This document shows positions 3,002 through 62,832 of a stretch of 64,000 nucleotides of DNA, piece by piece. The first letter of the stretch is position 1; every line of letters starts with the position of its first letter. The position numbers and the translations under genes were made by a program. This DNA is from Verrucomicrobiia bacterium (GTDB lineage: Bacteria > Verrucomicrobiota > Verrucomicrobiia > Limisphaerales > UBA1319): the NCBI GenBank assembly GCA_963664225.1, contig OY760937.1:1248001-1312000 (forward strand), given 5' to 3'. The notes under the pieces are model-generated. The model searched no databases and was not told the origin of the DNA. It saw only the letters and a list, made by a program, of their open reading frames with translations.

Positions 3002-5701
3002 ATGAGGACACTACTAACCGCATGCCTGGTTGCAGCCCCATTGATAGCAGCCACGGTGAATGCTCAGACGACCACCGTCTGGAACCCGGCCGCCAATCCC
3101 ACCACTACCGGTCTTTGGAGCGAAAGCGCCAATTGGACCGGCGGCGTCGTTCCAGATTATTCTTACAAGGTCGTGTTCAACGTTGCCGGAGCCAGTCCCT
3201 GCACCGTCAAAAGCGTCGCCACACCCGGTCAGTTGGTCATGGGAGATGGCGGTCCCGGAACCGTGATTATCGGCACTGGCGGCACTCTGACCACCGGGAC
3301 GAATTGGACCGGCCTGGGCTACAACAACGTGGCCGGCATCGAGGTCAGGTCCGGCGGCGCCGCCATTTTTAACGACCACCTGTGGGTTGGTTTTCTGCCC
3401 GGCGCGGATGGCACCCTTACCCTGAACGGCGGCACCGTCAATGTCTCTGGAATGTTCGGCTTGGGCTGGAACGGGGGCAAGGGATCGGCCTTTATCTACA
3501 ACGGCACCCTGAACCTTGCTCAATGGCATCCAACCGATTCGATTAAAAGTAATTCGATCATGGACATCACCGCCGGCAAGGTGGTGATCACCGGTAACGT
3601 GCTGGAATCCGTCAGTAACTATGTGGCGGTTGGAAAAATCATCTCCTACGCGGGGGCGGGGACTGTGGCATCCGCTTTTGATGAAGCCGCAGGCAAGACC
3701 ACTTTGACCGGCATTCGCCCCATCGGCGTCGGCCCGTTTGCCCCCACCAATTGGCCGACGAGCATCAAACCCGACAAAAAGGTCCATTTTTTCGCGGCGG
3801 ATGAATCCTTCGGCGCGCCGAATGAGAACTGGAATAACTCACTGGGACTGTTGAACGACGGAGATCAGACGACCATTGACGGAATGATTAAAGGCTTTGT
3901 AAGCAAGAAGGCTGCTTCTAGTTTTTTCAATATCACCGACTCCGCATACCAGGAATGGAACGCCTATGATCGCATTGATATTCTCATGCAGGTTTATGGC
4001 GATATTTCCGTGCTCAAACCCGGCAATCTGACTCTGCCGCGCCATATCCAATTCCTGACCGGCACCGTGCCTACTGAATTGGCTGTGGATGGGGGAGATT
4101 ATTCGATCGCCGCTTACAATCAGCGCTGGAACTGGATTGCCTTCTCCATTACCAACACTCTCATCGACGGCGGCCCCAACCACAAGGTGGGTTTCGTGCC
4201 AGATGGCGCGCAAGGGAACACCACTTATGGCGGTGTCAATGGAGGCACCATCCGGCTCCAGGGTCCCGATAATGGGGTCAATGGCATGTCGGTTCACGCG
4301 ATTGCCTTTGGCGAACCTGGCGCGTTTGGCGCCATCGCGGATATCAACCAGTTCGATGTTCCCGACGTATCCTGCGGTCCGGTACCTGATGAAAATCTGG
4401 TCGGCATCGACATTGCCGCCAGCGTTACCAATCACCTGGTGGTGCTGAATGACCAGGACCAGACCGTGACAGCGGTCACGGACGTGGGTCCCACAGGGGA
4501 CAAGCGTAATGCCGTCCTTCCGCAAGGCACTCTGTTGAATTTTGGAATCACCGATGAATTCCTGGGCAAGCCCTGCCATGACAACGCAACTTTCAAAGTC
4601 TGCCTTGATTTCTATGACGATCCCGCCTTTGCGGGAATGGGCGTCCAGTTTGGACCCGAGGCCTATGCCATCGATGCCTCTGGCGCGGTCGCGGTTTTCC
4701 CGGCGGGTCAGCTTCAAACCCTGGAGGGCTCCGGCAAATGGATTCGCCGTTCGTGGCTGATTCCAGGCGTCAACTTAAAGGGCGTCAACACGGGCTCGCT
4801 CACCGGCGGTCCGCGCTTTATTTGCGTCAATGGCCAGGTGGCGGTTTCGCGTTGCGAAATGGCCATTTTACGGACCGGCGATCATCCCCTGGCGGGGCAG
4901 GATCCGTTGGCGGATTGCTATTCCGATCCGCTGGTTTGCAGCGACGTTTACGGCAACTTTGCGGAACTCGATCTCGCCCGCGGCATCACGGATGGTCTGG
5001 ACGTGGGCACCAGCGGCGGTGACCAGTTCATGGTGACTGAGGAAGCCGGTCCGGTGGGCGATCGCCGCATGGCCGTCCGTCCCTCCTATGGAGACATCGG
5101 CACCGGCCAATTCCTGAACTTTGCCATTCTGACCAATGCCTTCGGACCTTCCACGCAACCCAATGCCCGTCTGGCAATGGCCGTCACTTATTATGACGAT
5201 CCCGCGCTCGTCGGGAAGGGATTCCGGCCCCAGGTATGGAAAATGGATTCCTCCGGCACTGAAGTCTTCAATTATCTTCAGCCAAAGGATAACATCGTGC
5301 TTCAGGGCACCGATAAATGGCGCGTTGCCTATTGGGAACTCCCGGCCATCAAATTCACCGGCGTCAACCAGGGACCCCAGGCCGCAGCCCGCTTCGATCT
5401 TGAAGGAAAGATCTTTGTCACCCGCGTTCGTTACGCGGTGATTCGCGCCTGCGGCCCCAACATGGGAAGAAACCTCCTCGAGAGCGAAAAGCCTTCCATG
5501 ACCATCGCCAGGGATATCGATGGGCAATTAAAGATGACCTGGCTCTACAAGGCCCCGCAGAACCAGATTCAAGGCATAAACACCTTTGGCGAGCTCTGGG
5601 CGCCATTGCAGGCCACCAACACCATTGAGAACAGCGAATGGAACGCTGTTCTGATCGCCCCCGAAAAAACCACCCGTTTCTTCAGGTTGGTGATGCCGTA
5701 A
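3002..5701 (+). CDS. secreted modular protein: Gly-rich beta-helix-like N-terminus, three ~190-aa repeats, C-terminal RFFRL domain
   Basis: Signal peptide MRTLLTACLVAAPLIAATVNA; internal repeats (YDDPAF/YYDDPAL, GKW/DKW, GVN); C-terminal TRFFRLVMP. Confidence 0.8.
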   Translation: MRTLLTACLVAAPLIAATVNAQTTTVWNPAANPTTTGLWSESANWTGGVVPDYSYKVVFNVAGASPCTVKSVATPGQLVMGDGGPGTVIIGTGGTLTTGTNWTGLGYNNVAGIEVRSGGAAIFNDHLWVGFLPGADGTLTLNGGTVNVSGMFGLGWNGGKGSAFIYNGTLNLAQWHPTDSIKSNSIMDITAGKVVITGNVLESVSNYVAVGKIISYAGAGTVASAFDEAAGKTTLTGIRPIGVGPFAPTNWPTSIKPDKKVHFFAADESFGAPNENWNNSLGLLNDGDQTTIDGMIKGFVSKKAASSFFNITDSAYQEWNAYDRIDILMQVYGDISVLKPGNLTLPRHIQFLTGTVPTELAVDGGDYSIAAYNQRWNWIAFSITNTLIDGGPNHKVGFVPDGAQGNTTYGGVNGGTIRLQGPDNGVNGMSVHAIAFGEPGAFGAIADINQFDVPDVSCGPVPDENLVGIDIAASVTNHLVVLNDQDQTVTAVTDVGPTGDKRNAVLPQGTLLNFGITDEFLGKPCHDNATFKVCLDFYDDPAFAGMGVQFGPEAYAIDASGAVAVFPAGQLQTLEGSGKWIRRSWLIPGVNLKGVNTGSLTGGPRFICVNGQVAVSRCEMAILRTGDHPLAGQDPLADCYSDPLVCSDVYGNFAELDLARGITDGLDVGTSGGDQFMVTEEAGPVGDRRMAVRPSYGDIGTGQFLNFAILTNAFGPSTQPNARLAMAVTYYDDPALVGKGFRPQVWKMDSSGTEVFNYLQPKDNIVLQGTDKWRVAYWELPAIKFTGVNQGPQAAARFDLEGKIFVTRVRYAVIRACGPNMGRNLLESEKPSMTIARDIDGQLKMTWLYKAPQNQIQGINTFGELWAPLQATNTIENSEWNAVLIAPEKTTRFFRLVMP

Positions 5702-5726
5702 TGCAGGGTTGTCAATTCCTGCCCGT

Positions 5727-5764
5727 AAAAGCCCGTCCGGTCCAAAAAACCGGCCGGGCTTTTT
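5727..5764. terminator. probable bidirectional intrinsic terminator
   Basis: AAAA-GCCCGTCCGGT-loop-ACCGGCCGGGC-TTTTT between convergent genes. Confidence 0.65.
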
Positions 5765-5828
5765 GGCCGGTCACCGGACGCCTCGTGAGGACGCTTGGCA
5801 TACAACATTTTCAGGTGTACCACCCCCT

Positions 5829-5882
5829 GTAGGCCGGGTCCCCTGACCCGGCGTCCCTGTAGGCCGGAGCCCCCACCGGGCG
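5829..5882 (+). repeat. two GTAG-type REP-like palindromic units
   Basis: GTAGGCCGGGTCCCCTGACCCGGCG and GTAGGCCGGAGCCCCCACCGGGCG, 30-bp period, intergenic. Confidence 0.6.
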
Positions 5883-5917
5883 TCCCTTGGTATGGCATCC
5901 TTCGGCTTGGGTTTTGT

Positions 5918-7759
5918 TCATTTCTGCCCATGCTTCGTGACCAGCCATCGCATCGCAGCCTCTTCGCCAAAGCTCTGTATGCGGTCGATGTAGCTGATCC
6001 AATCCTGGTCTGGCATCGTTTGCAGCAAGGGCTCGCTCTGTTGAACGAGCGCATTGAACATCTCTTTTTGTTGGGCGATTTGGTTGAGCCGGTCTTGAAC
6101 AGTCTGCCCGCCGTCGCCATAGGGGCTGTTTGGATTCATTGCGCTCAAGGCATTGCGTTCGATGGCCAGGCCCACCAGATGGCTGATGGCGCCATCCCCC
6201 GCTGATCCCGCGCCGTAGCTTTGCCCCAGGCTTGCCGCGATTTGCAGAACCGCCTGCGCGGATGCCTGGTCGCCGACCTGTCGATAGGTGCTGGATAGGT
6301 CCACCATTTGCTGGCCAAGTTGCTTTAATTCCAGGAGTTGCGGCAGCTCCACCTGGGAACCGATCAATTTGGACGCCGCCGCGGAGTAACCGGCCGCAAG
6401 GTAGGCCTCTGCGTCATTCTGCGCGCGCTCGAGCGTGTAATCCTGGAACTGACGCTTTCCGGAGGCGGCCATCAATTCCTGCACAGCTTGATCCGTCTGG
6501 CCCGCCTTGAGGTAATCGCGCGCCGAGAGGTAATTCGCCAGCGCGTTGTCCGGAGCCGTCTGTTCGAAGTTGTTCAGCCATTGGCGTCGTTGCTCGGGTG
6601 TCAGGTCCCCCTTTAGAATCGCCTCAAAGGCCACCTTCGGGTCGCTGGGAAAGTTCTGCATGGCTTCCTTGAGCAATGCCGCGTTCCCGCTGGTGCGATA
6701 CGCCGCCAGCAGACTCGCGGCCTTGCGCCCGTTTGCCTTGAGATAAACCTCGACCTGTTCGGCGGTCAGCTTCGGTGGTTCATTGCCGAATCGGGTATAT
6801 AAATTGGTGGCTTGCGATTCCCCCATTGGGGAGGGCGTTTTCGTGGCAATCTGCATGGGCGGAACGGCCGGACGAGGCTCCCGGGCCTTCTTCGTTTGGG
6901 CGAACTGGTCAGAGAGGCCCGCGTTTTCGGACTGCAGTTGCGCGTTCTGCTGCTGCAACGCCTGGTTTTCCTCGCGAAGCCTCTCTTGCGTATGGTGCTG
7001 GATCACGAGCGTCGTCGTCGCCCCGGCAATCAGCAGGGCCGTGAATGTGAGTTGGAGTTTTGTCATGGCCAGTTTTTTTAGGAGTGTGAGTGTTGTTCCA
7101 GTTCCCACCGCCACCGCCGCAGTCGAGGTTGTCAGGAGCGTCGCCGCCAGGCCGGCCGGGGCCGCGGTGACGGCCTTGACGCTCAGTGTGGAGGCCAGCG
7201 CTGCCGCAGTGGAGGTAACGCCCTTGCGGGCCAGTTGCAGGCGCAGCTTGTCCAGCGCCCGGTCCACCCTCATGCGCGCGGCGTTGTCGCTCAGCCCCAG
7301 GGCCAGCCCCACCTCGTTCAGACTCTTGTTTTTGAAGAAGCGAAGCAGAACGGCATGGCGATCCGTGGCGCCGAGCTCATGCATGGCCTCTTCCAGCACG
7401 GGAAACAAATCATCGCCATTCGATTCTGAATCCGGTTCGCGCAGAAGTTCGATCATGGTATGGGCCTCCTGTTCGCGTGCCTGCCTTCGCTGTTCCGTGC
7501 GCCTCACCCGCAATGCCACCCAGCGGGTGGTGGTGTAGAGCCATCCCACAAGCGCGGGATGATTTCTAAGTCGGTTCGCCTGCCGCGCCAATTCCGAAAA
7601 AACCAGTTGGGTGACATCCTGCGCCCGGTGAAAGTCGCCGCCGGTCAAACGCAAGGCCGCGGAATAAACCAAATCCATGTGCCGTCGAATCAGCTCGGCA
7701 AAGTCCGCTTCTGAATGGTCGGCGGCATATCGGCTTAGCAATTCAGTATCTTCGCGCAT
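5918..7759 (-). CDS. ECF sigma-70 factor with long C-terminal extension (TM helix, coiled coil, TPR-like region)
   Basis: Region 2 (AQDVTQLVF..GWLY) and region 4 (LLRFFKNKSLNEVGLALGLSDNAARMRVDRALDKLR), then an Ala-rich linker and a hydrophobic helix. Confidence 0.9.
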   Translation of the reverse strand: MREDTELLSRYAADHSEADFAELIRRHMDLVYSAALRLTGGDFHRAQDVTQLVFSELARQANRLRNHPALVGWLYTTTRWVALRVRRTEQRRQAREQEAHTMIELLREPDSESNGDDLFPVLEEAMHELGATDRHAVLLRFFKNKSLNEVGLALGLSDNAARMRVDRALDKLRLQLARKGVTSTAAALASTLSVKAVTAAPAGLAATLLTTSTAAVAVGTGTTLTLLKKLAMTKLQLTFTALLIAGATTTLVIQHHTQERLREENQALQQQNAQLQSENAGLSDQFAQTKKAREPRPAVPPMQIATKTPSPMGESQATNLYTRFGNEPPKLTAEQVEVYLKANGRKAASLLAAYRTSGNAALLKEAMQNFPSDPKVAFEAILKGDLTPEQRRQWLNNFEQTAPDNALANYLSARDYLKAGQTDQAVQELMAASGKRQFQDYTLERAQNDAEAYLAAGYSAAASKLIGSQVELPQLLELKQLGQQMVDLSSTYRQVGDQASAQAVLQIAASLGQSYGAGSAGDGAISHLVGLAIERNALSAMNPNSPYGDGGQTVQDRLNQIAQQKEMFNALVQQSEPLLQTMPDQDWISYIDRIQSFGEEAAMRWLVTKHGQK

Positions 7760-54256: not shown

Positions 54257-54916
54257 ATGATCGTCGCGCTCAGCAATTCCAAAGGCGGAGTGGGCAAGTC
54301 CACCCTGGCCGTGCATCTGGCCGTGTCGTGGCTTGAAGAGGGGACGGGCGTCGCGTTGGTGGATGCCGACGTGCAAGGCTCGTCGTCGGGGTGGCTCCAT
54401 GAAGCCGCCCCGCAATTGCCGGTGTTCCGGTTACAAACTCCCGACGAGGTGCTGGAGCAGGTGCCGGTCATCGCGGGCCAGTTCCAGCGGGTCGTGATTG
54501 ACGGGCCGGCGGGGCTTTCCGAGGTCACGCGGGCCATCCTCTTGGTGGCTGACATCGCGCTCCTGCCCTGCGGGCCATCCGTCCTGGATTTGCGGGCTGT
54601 GCATGAAGCGTTGCGCGTCGTGAGGCAGGCCCAGCAGATCCGTCAGGGACCTCCGAGCCCGATGGTCGTTCCCAACAAGCTGCAGGTTCAATACCGGCTC
54701 AGCCAGGAGTTGTTGGAAACTGCGAAATCGCTGGGCATCCCATCGCTGCCGGGTCTGCGCCTGCGCCAGGCGTATGCGGACGCCGCAGGGCAGGGCACAG
54801 TGGTCTGGCGGATGGGGCCGCGCGGTGAAGCCGCCGCATCGGAATTGAGAAACCTCTTTCAGGAGTTGGCCAGCTATGAATCGTCGAACTTTGAGCGCCG
54901 CGCTGCAAACGGTTAG
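54257..54916 (+). CDS. parA: type Ib plasmid partition ATPase ParA
   Basis: NSKGGVGKSTLA, VDADVQGS, VIDGP; short, no N-terminal HTH. Confidence 0.9.
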   Translation: MIVALSNSKGGVGKSTLAVHLAVSWLEEGTGVALVDADVQGSSSGWLHEAAPQLPVFRLQTPDEVLEQVPVIAGQFQRVVIDGPAGLSEVTRAILLVADIALLPCGPSVLDLRAVHEALRVVRQAQQIRQGPPSPMVVPNKLQVQYRLSQELLETAKSLGIPSLPGLRLRQAYADAAGQGTVVWRMGPRGEAAASELRNLFQELASYESSNFERRAANG

Positions 54917-55250
54917 CCTGACCGAATCGGCATTGGATTTCGTGAAGGCCGGCAATGCCAGACCAGCCCTGGACACCACGGCCGCCACGCCGATTCCGCC
55001 AACAAGCGCCGAGGAACCGCGTCCGGCAGGGAATGGATTGAAGCCGCGCTGGCAAGTCGGCGATGAAGCGGAACTCGAAGCAGACGCGGGTCTGGTCTCG
55101 TTGACCGTGCGGGTGCCGCGTGGTGTGCCGACGGGATTGCTGCTGGCCTCGATGGACCGGAAGCTCAAGCGCCAACGTCCTTGGACCCAGCAGGAAATCG
55201 TCGCCGAGGCCCTGACTCAATGGCTAAAGCAGCATGGATATCTGTCTTGA
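54876..55250 (+). CDS. ParG-like ribbon-helix-helix partition partner
   Basis: Flexible N-terminus, then SLTVRVP..TQQEIVAEALTQWL; overlaps parA. Confidence 0.7.
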   Translation: MNRRTLSAALQTVSLTESALDFVKAGNARPALDTTAATPIPPTSAEEPRPAGNGLKPRWQVGDEAELEADAGLVSLTVRVPRGVPTGLLLASMDRKLKRQRPWTQQEIVAEALTQWLKQHGYLS

Positions 55251-55274
55251 ACGAAAGTGATAAAGGGAGGAAGT

Positions 55275-55634
55275 ATGGAAGACCTGAACCGTTTGATTGA
55301 TGTCACGACCTTCGGCACGGTGCGCCGTTACCTCAGAGCCGCGCCTTCGCCCCGCACGACCGTCATGCTGGTGCGACACCGTGACATATTGCCACGCGTG
55401 GGCACGGCGCTGGTGACGGACCCGGGCAACCGCCGGACCTTTCGTCGCCGACAGTGGGCCGATTGGCTCACCTCGGGCGAGGTCCGATTCGACGGGACCC
55501 CCACCGCAGGCCAAAGCGCAAATCTCGACGCGATCCCGGACTCCGCTCTCTGCGATGTGCTTTACGTGCCGCCATTTTACCTGGTGTCCCTGCGCGGCTA
55601 CAAGGTGCCGGTGGTGCGTCGCGCTGACGCCTGA
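55275..55634 (+). CDS. hypothetical protein
   Basis: GGGAGG RBS before ATG 55275; plausible globular composition. Confidence 0.65.
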   Translation: MEDLNRLIDVTTFGTVRRYLRAAPSPRTTVMLVRHRDILPRVGTALVTDPGNRRTFRRRQWADWLTSGEVRFDGTPTAGQSANLDAIPDSALCDVLYVPPFYLVSLRGYKVPVVRRADA

Positions 55635-55739
55635 CATCCCTCCTATCGCGGTTCAAACCGTGTCTCATATTTTCCGCTACCAACGCCGTGCGGGAAGTGC
55701 TACGCATGGCACAGTGGGAGGTTTTGTTCTCCCCCAAAC

Positions 55740-57060
55740 GTGAGGATTGCCCACGCAATCTTTGACGTCGTTGTGATCGGCGCTGGCACCCGGAAAACCT
55801 GGCTCACCACCAGGCTAAGGGGACGGTCTTACCAACCGTCATGTCAGTGTCCCGTAGAGCGTGGTGCCACGAGAGTGGCCCGCCACGTTCGAGGGAGGCT
55901 TTCGGAAGTAATCCCGCCTTATCAGCGGAGTAATCTCCGGATTCTATCCCATAACGAGATGGTGCTCGTGAATGCGGGCGAGCGGGACACGCCGGTTGCT
56001 GAAATGCAGCCGGTCGGTCCTGTCCAAAATGGGTGCGTCGTGCCCAGGGGCACGGCATATCCCTCGGCGGGAATCGGACCAAAGCCGCAAGGCCAATCGG
56101 GTGCAAGGCTCGACAGGTTCGTTTAACGCGCGCTGGCGTCGGGAGCTTCCCGGTGGCAACACCGAGGAACCGGAGGCCGACAACCTCCGGGGTTCTGCCA
56201 AAACAGCAGACCGTGAAAAGCTCAACGATGAGAGGGGCGTCAAGCCCTTGCCAGTAAACGATAGCAGAGACGGAGCCGAATCGGCGAAGTTCAACCAGGG
56301 TGGGTAAGGGGGCGCTTCTGTATTCTATCCCCTGAAATCAGTCCCGCAGTGGGACTGGAAACCATGCCGGGGCGGGAGCCTCGGACATGCCTGGTGAGCG
56401 TGGACGCTTGCGCGTCCAGCCAACGTGACTGCTGTGGTGAAGGACAGGAATAACCGCGCAAGGAGTGTGGCGGCCGGAGTGGTATCCGGTGCCGGCGTGT
56501 CAGCCGGTGCTTCAATAGCCGCACTCTGATGAGAGTGCCCCAAGTAGGACCAGGCGGAGCCTGGACCCAATCGCCTTCGGCTTTCGAGCCGAAGGCAGGG
56601 TGTCACTCCAGCAAGGCAGTTGGAGTGGCGGGTGCGCGTCAACGGGTGGTGCCGGGCGCAACAGCACACACGAAAGGGGTGACGGGATAAATCGGTCACA
56701 ACGATGTGGTGGGCAGGTGGAATCAAACTCCACCTGCCCGCTGCCTAACCGACAAAGATTTGCGTTCCGCATATCGTTCCTGGGGACAGGCCACGATGCA
56801 TGGAAGGCAGCCTTATACATTGGAGAAACAGCCATGAGTGGGTGAACGAAGAGGATTTAAGCAGCCGCTACCGCCATGGATGGGCAACTGCAACATTGGA
56901 ATGCAGCGCGCGCGCCGTGATGGCCGAAGAACCTGCGCTTTGCGTGGACCAGAGGTTCTGAGACGGGCTTGCGGGGGGCGCGTTATTCGAGCGAGTGACA
57001 GGCTGCAAGAAGGTTACGGCTTTCGGGAGGTTGCGCCGCATAAGCAACCTTCCACCCTTT
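55740..57060 (+). ncRNA. large highly structured non-coding RNA candidate (group II intron-like or MISL-like); boundaries approximate
   Basis: No credible ORF; more than 15 hairpins, several with GNRA/TTCG tetraloops; long-range 14-bp helix 55767-55780 with 56692-56705 using G-U pairs on the + strand. Confidence 0.75.
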
Positions 57061-57090
57061 AGACGCCATAACACCGTTTGGAGGTGTGGT

Positions 57091-57720
57091 ATGGCATATC
57101 GGTGTGTGGCGGTTTCCGTGGCCGGATTCGTCCAGCAACTGGCCGTGGCTTACGTGGCTAACGGCTATTGGTTTTACGTGATGGGCCGGGTGCCGGATCC
57201 CAAAGATCCGGTCAGCGTGGATCGCAAGATGGTGACGCAATACGGGATCGATGTCTCGAAGTGGACGCGGGCGCGCTGCAAGAAAACGGGTCAGGCGCGC
57301 GTGCAGTATCTTCGATACGGCCGGTTCTTTGTGATTCTCGCGACCCACGGAGAGCACCCGTTCTTCGCCGTGGAGGGCAAGCAGGTTCGGGATTTCCGGC
57401 GGCATCCGCTCCACTTCATGGGCTACGCGATCAGTTGCCGCCAGGGACGCGATGGCAAGACCTGGCACCCATCGGTCCGCATCGATCGCGGGTTGTGCCT
57501 CGAATTGAAGGCCCGCTTTGCTGCGCTCGCCGTGCATCGGCCGCTTGAAGAGTTGTGCCGTGAACTCAGGCGGATTGATTTTGAGCCCTATGCGCCCGTC
57601 CGCGATCAACTCCGCGGCATCCTGCGGGCCGTGAACCGCCGCCGCAAAGCCGCTGGCCTGGAACTGGTGCCATGGGAAGCGCTCTGGCTGCGGCGAATGC
57701 CGGTCAAGCCATTCGGATAA
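57091..57720 (+). CDS. basic conserved hypothetical protein of PVC-type mobile elements
   Basis: GGAGGT RBS; GFVQQLAVAY..GYWFYV..KDP..D.K..YGID.SKW.RAR..VQYLRY..FFVILATHG; Arg-rich. Confidence 0.8.
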   Translation: MAYRCVAVSVAGFVQQLAVAYVANGYWFYVMGRVPDPKDPVSVDRKMVTQYGIDVSKWTRARCKKTGQARVQYLRYGRFFVILATHGEHPFFAVEGKQVRDFRRHPLHFMGYAISCRQGRDGKTWHPSVRIDRGLCLELKARFAALAVHRPLEELCRELRRIDFEPYAPVRDQLRGILRAVNRRRKAAGLELVPWEALWLRRMPVKPFG

Positions 57721-57726
57721 TCTGTG

Positions 57727-58347
57727 CTACTGAAGGTAGCCCAATTCGCGTAAGGATAGGAAATCCTTGGGCCGTTCGGTGGTGGCCTGGCCCAGGATGA
57801 TATGGTCCAGAACCTCGATTTTGAGCAATTGGCCCGCTCGGACTAGCTCGCAGGTGACTTTGATGTCAGCCGCACTGGGGGTGGGGTCGCCGCTGGGATG
57901 ATTATGCGCGAGAATAATGGCCGCCGCCCGATGGGCTATGGCTGTGCCAAAAACTTCGCGCGGATGGACCAGAATGGTGTCCAAGGTGCCCTGGGAGATG
58001 GTTTGCACCGCAATCAGGCGCCGACGGGAGTTCACCAGGATCGTCTGGAAAACCTCAACGGTGTAAAGCCGGTTTCGCTCACGCAACAGGTCCGCCACAC
58101 GTTCCGGGGCGTCCAGCATGGGCGGCTCGATAATGGTCTCGTGGCTGAGGCGCTGGGCGAGAAGGAAGGCCGATTTGATGGCGGCAGCGCGTGATTTGCC
58201 TACGCCTTTGATTTGTTGGAGTTCGTTGAGCGAGACCTGCGCCAGCTTGGTCAGCCCTCCGTATTCTTCCATCAGCATTGTCGCGGCCGATTTGCCGGCC
58301 AGCGTGGAAAGCAGGTCAACATTGCTGGCGTGTTCGAAATGCTCCAT
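57727..58347 (-). CDS. radC: RadC-family JAB protein with HhH domain
   Basis: ELQQIKGVGKSRA HhH; GTLDTILVHPREVF, AHNHPSGDPTPS..D, LDHIILG; start ATG 58347. Confidence 0.9.
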   Translation of the reverse strand: MEHFEHASNVDLLSTLAGKSAATMLMEEYGGLTKLAQVSLNELQQIKGVGKSRAAAIKSAFLLAQRLSHETIIEPPMLDAPERVADLLRERNRLYTVEVFQTILVNSRRRLIAVQTISQGTLDTILVHPREVFGTAIAHRAAAIILAHNHPSGDPTPSAADIKVTCELVRAGQLLKIEVLDHIILGQATTERPKDFLSLRELGYLQ

Positions 58348-58773
58348 GGCTTGATCCCTCCCTTCGATGGGACGAATCTTACCACTGTTTGAATCCTTAA
58401 GGAACAATTTGGAGGCCGTGTTCTATTGCAATGACCGTGCCATGGATTGGCCGGATACGACGTGTTACATGTTACACCGAAGTGGAGGTCCGAAGACCGG
58501 CGGCATCGGGGCGACGAGGCCCGGGCGCACGCCCCTTGGATCGCGGGCCTCGCAGCCGAGCGGAGCGAGGGGCACCTTGGGCCGCCGCAGTTGAGGGCCG
58601 GAACTATGCCTGGATAGGCTTGAATTGGCATCTCACTTCACACGGTAGATTATGAACTGCTCTGGCAATATTCGTGAGCCTATCGTCGGCAAGCTCGCCG
58701 TACAATCAGTTCGGGTTCCACTGACAACGCGTGGGCAATACCTATCCTTTGGCGCTGGCCGCAACTTCAAATT

Positions 58774-59234: not shown

Positions 59235-60128
59235 TCATTTCTCATGTGCCTTAAGCGCCTCGAATCCTGAAATCACGTCAAAAAGTTCCTCGTCAATGCC
59301 GCTCTGGCGCAAACGGTGGAACGTACCGTGAAGATGTTCCATCAAGTCATCAATATTTTTATCGGCGCGCTGCATCGCCGCCAGGCGGCTCGCGTTCTCG
59401 CTCGCGAGGGATTCGGCGCACGCCCTGAACAGCGAGATGAACAGATACTCGCGAATGAGAGCGCGCAACGTCGCTGTGCCTCCACCCATGACTTCAGGCA
59501 AGGTCTTTGTCGGCCATGGAACTTTGGCCAGACTCTGAGCCCACGCCCCATCGAGCGGCAGCAATCGTTGGCTAACCGGTTCATAGAGCGCCCCGGATTG
59601 CGGGCGGTTGTGAAAGACGTAAAGCTGCGCATACTCACCTTCCGCCCGGTGCGCTTCGCTTTCAATTTGAATCTCTCCAACGAGCGGAGTAATGGCCCGG
59701 ACGGAATTCGGGATGGCGAACAATCCTATAGGCGGCAAGCCCGCATCCGTCAGCCGCGCGTGAACACGCTCACCGACGGCCCAGACATGGGGTTTGCCAG
59801 GTAGAGCGGCCAGAGTCTTAACCGCAAAATCGGCCACCACATCGTTGAACTGGCCGACCAGTCCTTGATCTGAACCAAACACAACTGCGCCAATCGCACC
59901 GGCATCGGTTTGTCCTCTCCGTTCCACCAGTAAAGTCGCAGGTTCGTTTTCCCGAAAACACGCGCCCAACCCCAACTGCACGGTTCGATAGTAGTCGCCT
60001 AACGCGTGCACAGATTTCTCGTATTGACCGATGCTCGAAGCAGCCAGTGCTTTCATCGTGCGGACGACGGATTGGAGATCCCCAGCACTGCTTATTTTCC
60101 GGCGCAAACTCGCTGTGGTGTCGCTCAT
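59235..60128 (-). CDS. atpG: N-type F1Fo ATPase gamma subunit
   Basis: [40 protein letters not shown]. Confidence 0.95.
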
Positions 60129-61918
60129 GGTTTGACCTTGGCCTCCGGTTCAGTGACAGGCTCGGGCTTCGTTGGACCATCCGGCTTGGACTCGGTTTCA
60201 GTTTTCAGTTTCGGCTTAGCGTCCGGTTTGGTTTCTGTTATGGCATCCGACTTAGACTCGCTATCGGGCTTGGATTCTGCCTCCGGTGTGGACTTGTTCG
60301 ATTTGGATTCTGGCTTTTTCCCGTCCTTTGCTTCAGGTTCGGGTTTCTTTACGGTCTTTTGGTCAGGCTCGTCGGGCTTGGCTTCCGGTTTGGGCAGGAA
60401 AACTACCAGCGCTTGGCGGGCGATTTCGATAATTGTTTTGCGATCCTCATCGCTCAACTTGTCGGCGGTTTCAAATCGCGCGCTCACCTCGGCCGGGATT
60501 TTAGCCGCCGCCTCTTGCACTGCATGCCCGGCGTCCTTCATTTGGTCCAGCGGCACTGGGTCGAAAAGATTCGCAGTTAAAGCCAGCAGGATGGCGATTT
60601 GTGCGGGCACGGCCACCGGGGAGAACTCCGGCTGCTTGAGGCAGGCGCGGATTCGGCGGCCATGTTCGATGATTTTGCGCGTGTCGTCATCCAGCCGAGC
60701 GCCGAATCTGGAAAAGGTTTCAAGCTCCTCAAACTGTGCATAGGCGAGCTTTAGGTCGCCCGCCACGGCGCGATAGGCCGCTCGTTGCGCTTTGCCACCC
60801 ACACGCGAAACGGATTTTGCAACATCCACCGCTGGTAACACGCCCAGCTCGAACAGCGACGGCGAGAGATAAATCTGCCCGTCGGTGATGGAAATGAGGT
60901 TTGTCGGGATGTAGGCGGAAATATTCTGCGCCTCGGTCTCGATGATGGGGAGGGCAGTGAGCGAGCCGCCGCCGTGTTCCTTGCGCAGATGGGTCGCCCG
61001 TTCCAACAGCCGCGAGTGGATGTAGAAAATGTCGCCGGGAAAGGCTTCACGTCCAGGCGGTCGGCGTAGCAAAAGGGAAAGCTCGCGATAGGCGCGAGCG
61101 TGGTGAGTGAGGTCATCATAAACGATCAGCACATCGCGACCCGCTTCCATGAAATGTTCAGCGATGCTGGTCGCGGCGTATGGAGCTATGTAAGCAAGTC
61201 CGGGTGGATCGTTGCCCTCGGTCACGACGACGACGGTGTAATCCATCGCGCCTTTTTCGCGGAGGTTGGCCACAACCTTGGCGACGGCGGACGCGCGCTG
61301 ACCGATGGCACAATAGACGCACACGACATTCCGGTCGCGTTGGTTGAGAATGGTGTCGAGGGCGATCGCCGTCTTGCCTGTTCGACGGTCACCGAGGATC
61401 AATTCGCGCTGGCCGTGTCCGATGGGAATAAGTGCGTCAATGACTTTGAGGCCGGTCTGAAGCGGCACGGTGACCGGCGCGCGATCCATGATGGCTGCGG
61501 CGGGGCGTTCGATGGGCAGGCGCTCACTGGTTGCCACCGGTCCATTGGCATCGAGCGGCCGGCCAAGTGGGTCAATGACGCGCCCCAGCAATCCTTCGCC
61601 CACGGCCACGTCCATGACCCGGCCCGTGCGCTCGACCTCATCGCCAGCGTGCAGATGTGAGTATTCGCCGAGCAGCACAACACCGATTTCATCCTCATCA
61701 ACGTTGAACGCGATGCCAAACGCGCCGCCGGGGAATTCCACCAACTCCTCGAAGCCCACGCTGGGAAGGCCGGAAACCCGCGCGATGGCCGTGGAAACAC
61801 TCATGATCGTGCCGATTTCGCGCGGCTTAAGTTGTTGGGTATAGGCTTCGCGCCCCTGACTGATTCCGGCGAAGGTGCGGTCGAATACACTCTGCAAATT
61901 CTCAGGCGAAGTGTTCAT
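60125..61918 (-). CDS. atpA: N-type F1Fo ATPase alpha subunit with Lys/Pro/Glu-rich tail
   Basis: [46 protein letters not shown]. Confidence 0.96.
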
Positions 61919-62832
61919 TGGCTCTTTTTCGCGAGCATAGGTTCTTCCGGTTTAGTTTCGACCTCGGCTTCAGTTTTCGGTTCGCCTTTGGCTTCGGGCT
62001 TAGTTTCGACTTTAACTGCGGATTTAGTTTCGGGTTTGGCTTCAGGTTTAGGCTCGGCTTTGGGTTGTGGCTTGTCCTTCTCTTTCAGAAGTTCACCGAT
62101 GCCTTTTTCCAGCGACGCGAGGTAATCTGCGATGCTCCAACCGACTTTTTGCCCATTAATGGTGAGTTCAATCCCACTGACCAGGTCGGGCGCGGTTTCA
62201 AACCGAAGGGGAATGTCAGCCGAGAAAGTTTCGTTGAGTGCATTCTGTATCGTCGCGCGTTGGTCGGCGGCCAGTCCAAACGCACTGCGCACGAGAACAG
62301 GCACCGACGCGGTCCTGATGGCCTCGGCGAGGCTGACTTTCGCCTTGCCGTCCATCTCGCGCAAACGACGCGTGAACACTTCGCCCATCCGCTCTTCCAA
62401 ACTCGTCGTAGCGAGATCCGCCAGCGCCTTTCGCGCGATGGCAAACACTTCCTGCTGCGTCCGGCGACTGATGGCTTGATTCAGGTTGCGAGCGTCGTTG
62501 GTCAGCGATTCCTGTCGCTTCGCACTCAAGGCGTCAGCAGCCTTGCGCGCTTCGTCAAGCAATCGCTGACGTTCGGCTTTCGCCTCGTCCGTCGCCTTGG
62601 TCAAAAGTGCGGCGCGCTGCTGGTCGAACTCCTCGTTCTTATGCTGGAACTCGTCACGATCCTTTTGAGCTTCGGCCTTTTTTGCATCGGCGTCCGCAAG
62701 TTCTTTTGCGATCCGCTTCTCACGCGCGTCAATCGCGTGGAGGATGGGCTTGTAAAGAAAGCGCTTCATCAGCCACACCAGGATAAGGAAGTTGAGCGCC
62801 TGCGCACCAACGGTGAACCAGTCAATCAACAT
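61915..62832 (-). CDS. atpF: N-type ATPase b/delta fusion subunit with PKPE-type tail
   Basis: [30 protein letters not shown], coiled coil, delta-like LVSGIEL..GWS. Confidence 0.93.

Follow-up and report, generated by a model that had tools for sequence, protein, structure and literature searches.

The DNA analysed here (the window, 64,000 nt from a Verrucomicrobiia bacterium, within which all locus coordinates are given) carries at 55740-57060 a stretch that is a structured RNA on the + strand and not a new RNA class. We conclude with high confidence that this RNA, which spans approximately 55713-56745 (+) and has a 3' extension to approximately 57060, is a circularly permuted (CP) group II ribozyme, with its catalysis assigned by analogy. 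The CP group II class was described by Roth, Weinberg, Vanderschuren, Murdock and Breaker (Roth et al., 2021; PMC8637638) and has Cte 1, Tth and Gdi-1 as representatives. The canonical intron order, in which domains 1 to 6 (D1-D6) lie between terminal splice sites and the 5' end reads GUGYG, is not found here, as D5 and D6 precede D1. They are located 5' of D1-D3 on the same strand, with the D1-D3 helices at 55976-56681, and such a D5-D6 at the 5' end of the stretch is the signature of CP group II ribozymes. A preliminary description of the locus had offered three readings, of which a derived group II intron without an open reading frame (ORF) came closest: the RNA does derive from a group II ribozyme, but the circular permutation was missed. 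Another of the three, a new large non-coding RNA class, does not hold, as the architecture matches the class published in 2021.

Two scans with Rfam 15 bear on the identification. At gathering thresholds, the whole window returned a single tRNA elsewhere and nothing in the RNA stretch. In the second scan, which covered 55200-57600 with laxer filters, RF00029 (Intron_gpII, D5-D6) matched 55855-55952 with 44.3 bits (gathering score 40; E 7.4e-7), and no other Rfam family was found in that region at E < 1. The comparison with Rfam that the preliminary description had proposed has in this way given a match over D5-D6 and no full-length match to a known family. The matched part contains a canonical 34-nt D5 (55857-55890, +), consisting of an AGC triad followed by five pairs, a bulge of 2 nt and a GAGA loop. 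Such a domain had been reported as not visible, even though its top is the first hairpin listed at the time, GCCAC-GAGA-GTGGC (55866). D6 follows at 55893-55952 (+), supported by both RF00029 and covariation, and has a bulged branch-point A at 55946 and the end ..CCCAU, after which the 3' splice site is located. The domain VI-like structure previously seen at the 3' end of the stretch is therefore misplaced, the actual D6 being 55893-55950.

Homologues were collected by nhmmer, and covariation was examined in an alignment of 39 near-full-length sequences, to which the pairing frequencies and compensatory changes below refer. The helices were taken from RNAalifold, four doubtful ones were dropped and three tertiary pairings were added. 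The curated structure has 310 pairs in 52 helices, and 233 of these pairs are changed on both sides. Paired cells make up 91.8%, compared to 35.4-41.0% when the structure is slid by 1-3 columns, and the covariation score is 0.475 compared to 0.072-0.095 for the slid versions, with none of 500 shuffles reaching as high. The structure was derived from the same 39 sequences and is for that reason favoured over the slid versions; still, the margin is large, and so is the count of compensatory pairs. Phylogenetic signal swamped a covariation scan that compared all columns in search of tertiary contacts, and no run in it reached three pairs; specific pairings were examined by name instead. Within D5, the helix is 97.8% paired with 8 compensatory pairs, and the triad is AGC in 33 and CGC in 6 of the 39 sequences. 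Positions T243-A253 in the D6 region (row 1 numbering) are invariant or nearly so.

The two splice sites flank a short linker (55953-55975, +), which is defined by the splice-site consensus and is the predicted 23-nt circular product. Its last six nucleotides, 55970-55975, form intron-binding site 1 (IBS1), which pairs with exon-binding site 1 (EBS1; 56320-56325, +) in the loop of the D1 hairpin 56307-33; this pairing is found in 90.6% of cases, with compensatory changes in 4 of 6 pairs. D1 (55976-56459, +) is supported by covarying helices and opens with the 5' splice-site motif GGGCGA (55976-81), which is invariant in 39/39 rows and also in 31/31 rows of a second alignment. In the class, the 5' splice-site motif is GGGCG and not GUGYG, and the predicted circles are 15-86 nt (PMC8637638). 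Linker lengths among the 39 sequences range from 16 to 101 nt and exceed 86 nt in four of them. We also considered GUGCG at 56033-37 as the 5' splice site, and rejected it because it is enclosed in D1 by the two covarying base helices of this domain, 55982-85/56454-57 and 56017-25/56442-50 (+). The class motif GGGCG further rules out this candidate (Roth et al., 2021; PMC8637638). The part at 56280-56475 that had been described as an echo of domain I indeed lies within D1 and includes EBS1.

By analogy with tested class members, the RNA probably excises a tiny RNA circle. The transcript would run from the leader through the 5' part of a split D4 (the p1 and p2 hairpins), D5, D6 and the 3' splice site to the 23-nt linker, and continue with the 5' splice site GGGCG, D1, D2, D3 and the 3' part of D4. 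Two leader-to-tail helices would re-form the D4 stem, and two kissing loops would dock the p1 and p2 hairpins onto D2 and D3. In the first step, the 2'-OH of A55946 would attack the bond before G55976. In the second, the linker's 3' end, set free in this way and held by IBS1-EBS1, would attack the bond after U55952. The expected products are a 23-nt RNA circle made of the linker and a T-shaped RNA with a 2'-5' branch.

The split D4 and its kissing loops are well supported by the alignment. The outer closing helix joins a 3'-side strand at 55768-55780 (+) with 56692-56704; it has 13 pairs, of which 12 are compensatory, and is 90.3% paired, which shows that the long-range helix described earlier as 55767-80/56692-705 is real. 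The pre-D5 spacer (55850-55855, +) pairs with 56682-56687 in 99.6% of cases, with 4 of 6 pairs compensatory, so that the 5'-side strands of the split D4 (56682-56704, +) are 56682-87 and 56692-704. The 5' part (55781-55849, +; 92-99% paired) consists of the stem 55781-87/55843-49 with two hairpins, one p1-like (55798-55814, +) with CACCA in its loop and one p2-like (55822-55840, +) with UACCA, i.e., both loops carry ACCA. The p2-like loop (55830-34) covaries with the D2 loop at 56480-84: 95.4% of cells are paired, 3 of 5 pairs are compensatory with CG/UA swaps of 17/17, 32/7 and 36/1, and the combinations ACCA/UGGU, AUCA/UGAU and ACUA/UAGU are seen. Complementarity is also seen between the p1-like loop (55805-09) and the loop of D3 at 56647-51, and this pairing is nearly invariant (97.9% paired). 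According to Roth et al. (2021; PMC8637638), the P2-D2 pseudoknot is the best-supported class-specific feature. In the 2026 cryo-electron microscopy study of Gdi-1 (PMC13717195), the p1 and p2 loops kiss D2 and D3 using identical loop sequences, and the pre-D5 spacer pairs with the 3' D4 as omega-omega', re-forming the D4 stem. Our RNA resembles Gdi-1 in both respects, with a second hairpin of the same loop sequence facing D3 and an omega-omega'-like split D4. Further cryo-electron microscopy work on the class is found in bioRxiv 10.64898/2025.12.30.696962.

The remaining core domains follow in group II order. Beyond its base helices, D1 has three arms at 56065-56132, 56133-56254 and 56258-56438 (+). 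D2 (56462-56527, +) is a 10-bp stem with two hairpins, the first of which has the loop 56479-84 that kisses the p2-like loop, and its helices are 97-98.7% paired. The junction J2/3 (56528-56535, +) is purine-rich and conserved, with the sequence GAUGAGAG and the invariant positions G829, G832, A833, G834 and G836 (row 1 numbering); J2/3 is named as a class feature by Roth et al. (2021; PMC8637638). D3 (56536-56681, +), supported by covariation and invariant columns, contains a variable insert at 56556-94 and the loop GUGGUG at 56646-51. Conserved AGUA and GAA internal loops flank its basal stem and are possibly E-loop-like.

The locus appears as non-coding in our analysis, in agreement with the earlier statement that 55740-57060 holds no credible protein. 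No gene with a family match is found between a 125-aa ORF (55257-55634) and a 209-aa ORF (57091-57720); the ORFs within 55740-57060 are at most 133 aa, and the one of them that was tested, 55740-56126, has no Pfam family. The dense and strand-specific structure noted in the preliminary description was also seen, as the + strand folds far better than the - strand. For 55760-56710, the + strand has a folding energy of -470 kcal/mol compared to -393.3 +/- 6.7 for 20 shuffles (z -11.5), and the - strand has a z of -5.0 against shuffles. The hairpins listed at the time are present at the positions reported, but conservation did not follow for each of the proposed pairings, and of the four long-range helices one is supported. 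The hairpin GCACTCT/AGAGTGC is not conserved as a local element, its 5' arm being the 3' strand of the D2 stem (98.7% paired). The helix 55847-54/55983-90 is perfect in the window but only 70.7% paired family-wide, with 2-5 of 8 pairs in distant relatives, and the 5' bases of the 55847-54 region pair instead with 56682-87 (99.6%). Similarly, 56861-66/57001-06 is 59.1% paired and not kept family-wide, and 55754-64/56753-64 is 38-64% paired, with only some close relatives retaining 8-10 of its 11 pairs.

The comparison with the published class reveals both shared and diverged features. Shared with the class are the order D5-D6-linker-D1-D2-D3-D4, the GGGCG site, a short linker whose circularisation is predicted, the placement of EBS1 in a D1 loop that is conserved, the P2-D2 kissing loop, the lack of an ORF inside the RNA and an adjoining relative of the acpG gene. 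The RNA in the window differs from the class in several ways: its D5 is more canonical, with a paired A in AGC, an additional helix of 13 bp closes it on the outside, its leader has two more hairpins, and there is a 3' extension of approximately 350 nt; CP group II RNAs are approximately 900 nt in size (PMC8637638). Moreover, the acpG-like gene is here almost always located downstream on the same strand. Compared to canonical bacterial group II introns, the D5/D6 sequence and structure, the branch A, the AU 3' end, the EBS/IBS logic and J2/3 are alike, whereas the domains are permuted, the 5' end is GGGCG instead of GUGYG and D4 has no reverse transcriptase (RT) ORF. The splice sites face inward, giving a circle and not joined flanking exons.

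A covariance model of the D5-D6-linker-5' splice site segment (R1) scored 51-115 bits on plasmids of Calothrix, Planctomycetes, Leptolyngbya and B. cereus. On the Thermus plasmid pTT8, its best match is full-length at 5778-5920 (- strand), inside the CP group II RNA that Data S1 of Roth et al. (2021; PMC8637638) places at 5976..5075 (- strand). RF00029 matches the RNA in the window and not the Thermus RNA. When Rfam 15 was run on pTT8 (L007) 4100-6300, no meaningful match to this experimentally validated CP group II RNA was obtained, and Rfam 15 seems to hold no model for the class.

Although the class is known, the locus is a member of a large and diverged sister clade in phyla outside the taxa named in Data S1. 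Roth et al. (2021; PMC8637638) reported approximately 290 CP group II sequences from Deinococcus-Thermus, Firmicutes and Proteobacteria, and Data S1 names Thermus, Geobacillus and several Proteobacteria in addition to 51 environmental sequences. The hosts of the sister clade include Verrucomicrobiota, Planctomycetota, Cyanobacteriota, Nitrospira and others, which are absent from these named taxa, and six names that were looked for do not occur in three of the supplementary files of that article, which has one further file. In 150 other genomes of the phylum, with 20 candidates scored per genome, R1 gave no match at E <= 1e-12.

To our knowledge, CP group II ribozymes are rare, form RNA circles and have no known biological role. 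The RNA in the window is accompanied by a protein-coding gene, the 209-aa ORF (57091-57720, +; ribosome-binding site GGAGG at 57081-85), which begins 30 nt downstream of the 3' extension and is acpG-like according to hhalign. No terminator-like site was found between the RNA and this ORF in the window. In the class, acpG and its CP group II RNA are often divergent, as in the Thermus pair, and in 2021 no homology could be detected between AcpG and a known class of proteins (PMC8637638). Judged by titles, Roth et al. (2021) was the only report on this protein among the matches listed in a literature search on AcpG and group II. Pairwise BLASTP of the 209-aa ORF against Thermus AcpG (L007:6164-6943) was negative, and the relation to AcpG is therefore seen by profile-profile comparison only: against A5, the Thermus AcpG family, hhalign gave 94.2% (E 1.1e-7, 157 columns) with A6 and 88.4% with A1. 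At the level of sequence profiles, the 209-aa protein is thus a distant AcpG homologue. It resembles AcpG (TTHC007) in this profile match and in adjoining a CP group II RNA, but is shorter (209 compared to approximately 260 aa) and is encoded downstream of the RNA on the same strand instead of the often divergent arrangement. The AcpG-like family is large: one library has 2082 of its proteins at E <= 1e-3, a second library has 1259 clusters at 50% identity, and neither the window protein nor sampled family members match Pfam or NCBIfam.

The predicted structure points to an RT origin of this protein. An AlphaFold2 model built from 62 sequences (pLDDT 97.3, pTM 0.90) had retron and group II RTs as its best Foldseek matches, at modest E-values of 1e-4 to 1e-2. 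When VIA-align was run on the Foldseek candidates, group II intron RTs came out on top, with 8h2h_D at Z 10.3 (root-mean-square deviation 3.9 Å over 191 residues), followed by 8t2r_D (Z 9.2) and 6me0_C (Z 9.0). An independent search of 48,161 representative chains also had 6me0_C (9.0) and 7uim_D (8.6) on top; three chains reached Z >= 8, and the first eight rows were all RT-like proteins, including Prp8. The fold is shared with group II RT/maturases (8h2h_D, 8t2r_D, 6me0_C, 7uim_D) over 180-191 of the 209 residues with Z 8.6-10.3, but the window protein has no N-terminal fingers part and no YxDD aspartates. Additionally, hhalign against a group II RT of the host placed YLRYGRFFVIL on MVRYADDFVIL and HFMGYAIS on KFLGFALT (E 2.4e-4, 43.6%). 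YxDD is absent, the YADD position being YGRF with both aspartates replaced. The model suggests that the partner protein is likely RT-derived and non-catalytic, i.e., at most a non-polymerase RT derivative, and we infer that it most likely binds the ribozyme as a maturase-like helper.

A more tentative idea, which we consider possible but would not favour, is that the RNA and the ORF together represent an entire group II retroelement in a single, circularly permuted copy, with the AcpG-like protein as its shrunken intron-encoded maturase. The two look like a permuted retroelement because the ORF follows the D3-side strand of D4, as intron ORFs do. The protein would then have kept palm and thumb, lost the fingers and catalytic aspartates, and serve as a maturase for back-splicing. 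If co-transcribed with the ORF, the ribozyme would give the acpG message a 2'-5' branched, exonuclease-resistant 5' end; the lariat-capping ribozyme acts similarly on homing-endonuclease mRNA. If true, this would provide AcpG with an origin and a job, and give a reason why plasmids and integrative elements carry the pair.

The linkage between RNA and ORF was followed in a scan of one genome per species, in which 148 stretches were confirmed; we kept 80 loci from these. nhmmer with the RNA of the window found + strand matches upstream of the ORF in most of the 80 loci, and in a profile search, of the 51 loci with at least 2400 nt of upstream DNA, 48 have the RNA on the same strand as the ORF and upstream of it. 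In the three exceptions (L035, L037 and L055), a filter-free R1 search gave no match on either strand. In 22 of the 48 loci, 26-74 nt separate the conserved RNA from the start of the ORF, and in 12 of the 48 other genes are located between RNA and ORF. In one such locus (L014), a 258-aa ORF (1571-2347, -) that appears methyltransferase-like from an NPPY motif is inserted between the 3' extension and the acpG-like ORF, and in another (L041) a 347-aa ORF with no assigned family (1368-2411, +) has this position. ORF homologues also occur on plasmids of a planctomycete, Leptolyngbya, Calothrix and Bacillus cereus, each with a gap of 1.4-1.7 kb free of coding sequences directly upstream. RF00029 is found in two of these four gaps (49.4 and 47.6 bits), and two of the plasmid relatives were typed as MOBF. 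A blastn search of plasmids with the RNA, set for distant matches, gave none. Calothrix sp. NIES-4101 plasmid5 (L005) carries two CP group II copies at 123-263 and 2274-2405, approximately 2.1 kb apart, which score 107 and 115 bits with R1.

Some of our results weigh against the interpretation as a CP group II ribozyme with an RT-derived partner. The Rfam D1-D4 models all gave no match in the region at E <= 10, and approximately 350 nt of 3' extension is outside the assigned domains. The IBS1-EBS1 pairing is imperfect, with 4/6 pairs in L048, L056 and L062 and 4-5/6 in several sequences, and 6 of 39 rows lack the pair that adjoins the splice site. nhmmer found no match in Thermus pTT8 with either the single sequence or the profile, and the R1 match there has only 14.2 bits and an E-value of 0.027, E-values being rough for this model. 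For the protein, Pfam RT families (RVT or maturase-domain) match 0 of 62 members at E <= 1, and the structural Z of 9-10 is modestly above the usual noise ceiling of 7-8. As the sequence link to the validated pTT8 RNA is marginal, class membership rests mainly on the shared defining features. The missing Rfam match is uninformative, since Rfam 15 also fails on the validated pTT8 RNA.

These points must be weighed together with other explanations of the locus. The most plausible of them, although still unlikely, is a structured cis leader that controls the acpG-like gene, for example by stabilising or gating its mRNA, with ribozyme activity lost or incidental. The short distance to the ORF in 22 of 48 loci and the lack of a terminator-like site between them in the window agree with such a role, but the catalytic elements are all invariant, 12 of 48 loci have other genes separating the ORF from the RNA, and the Thermus pair is divergent. 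A cis leader is also compatible with an active ribozyme and not opposed to it. It is very improbable that the stretch is a decayed remnant, in which D5-D6 was left over from an ordinary group II intron and the non-coding DNA behind it is unrelated. Even though D5-D6 is the only Rfam match and the genome has at least 15 ordinary group II introns, 39 sequences from several phyla show conservation and D1-D3 covariation over the approximately 750 nt that follow D6, the order D5-D6-linker-GGGCGA is kept throughout the relatives, and leader and tail pair together (55768-80/56692-704 and 55850-55/56682-87).

We consider it just as improbable that the RNA belongs to a new large non-coding class unrelated to group II, or is a relative of MISL, GOLLD, ROOL, HEARO or OLE. 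While no Rfam family spans the whole stretch and its length of approximately 1000-1350 nt exceeds the approximately 900 nt of CP group II RNAs, the D5, D6, branch A, GGGCG, EBS1-IBS1, P2-D2 loop, J2/3 and split D4 are all present, and Rfam 15 misses the validated pTT8 RNA too. Least probable of all are trans-splicing intron halves that join coding exons elsewhere. Organelles are known to contain group II introns that are split and come together in trans (PMC8637638), but here both halves are on one strand, 16-101 nt apart and paired through D4, and the linker has no conserved coding capacity. A CP group II ribozyme thus remains our preferred reading, and the clade is a source of new natural scaffolds for RNA circularisation. 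The near-strict RNA-ORF linkage, the RT-like fold that has no catalytic residues and the intron-ORF position are openings for studying the RNA-protein pair.

Outside the core, the leader (55714-55767, +) has two hairpins, 55714-19/55730-35 and 55739-44/55762-67, which are 70-85% paired with 13 of 15 pairs changed on both sides, and their support is weaker than that of the core. The 3' part of D4 is extended by a 14-bp hairpin (56709-56741, +; 81.6% paired, 13/14 pairs compensatory). It is followed by the 3' extension (56742-57060, +), which contains the hairpin 57025-57053 and has its sequence kept in closer relatives: nhmmer alignments reach query position ~1360 in 24 of them, and the hairpins are moderately supported. 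The extension remains with the RNA in the 12 of 48 loci that have other genes inserted before the ORF, and for this reason it belongs to the RNA unit. Upstream, 55701-55706 (+) is a possible -10 promoter box (TAnnnn) judging from its conserved offset, 7-9 nt before the first hairpin, as a hexamer starting with TA is found at the same offset in most of 38 relatives having upstream DNA. A sigma-70 consensus scan found no promoter upstream of the RNA. A terminator-like hairpin with a T-rich tail (55647-55662) is located directly after the upstream 125-aa ORF, and this sequence feature suggests that the ribozyme has its own transcription start.

The genes around the cassette include RepA (PF10134), ParA and RadC. 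Two small ORFs follow parA at 54876-55250 and 55257-55634 (+), and neither has a Pfam or NCBIfam family. On the other side, a RadC-like gene with a JAB domain (57727-58407, -) is convergent with the acpG-like ORF. The same genome has a second RNA-plus-acpG cassette with 96-97% identity at C1:2792083-2794344 (L002/L088), which is located within a different element, where the other genes are 74% identical or unmatched and the radC part is approximately 4 kb further on. This suggests that the cassette moved recently between elements. Furthermore, an ordinary group II intron that encodes an RT is present in the genome in at least 15 copies (L090-L093 and 11 other places). The D5-D6 of L090-L093 each score 49.3 bits on RF00029, and in L091 a 442-aa RT ORF with YADD ends approximately 30 nt before D5. 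It is possible that these ordinary introns could supply an RT or maturase acting in trans. Genes for ATP-synthase gamma, alpha and b are located at 59235-62832 (-) and probably mark the edge of an integrated mobile element, with the RNA near one edge.

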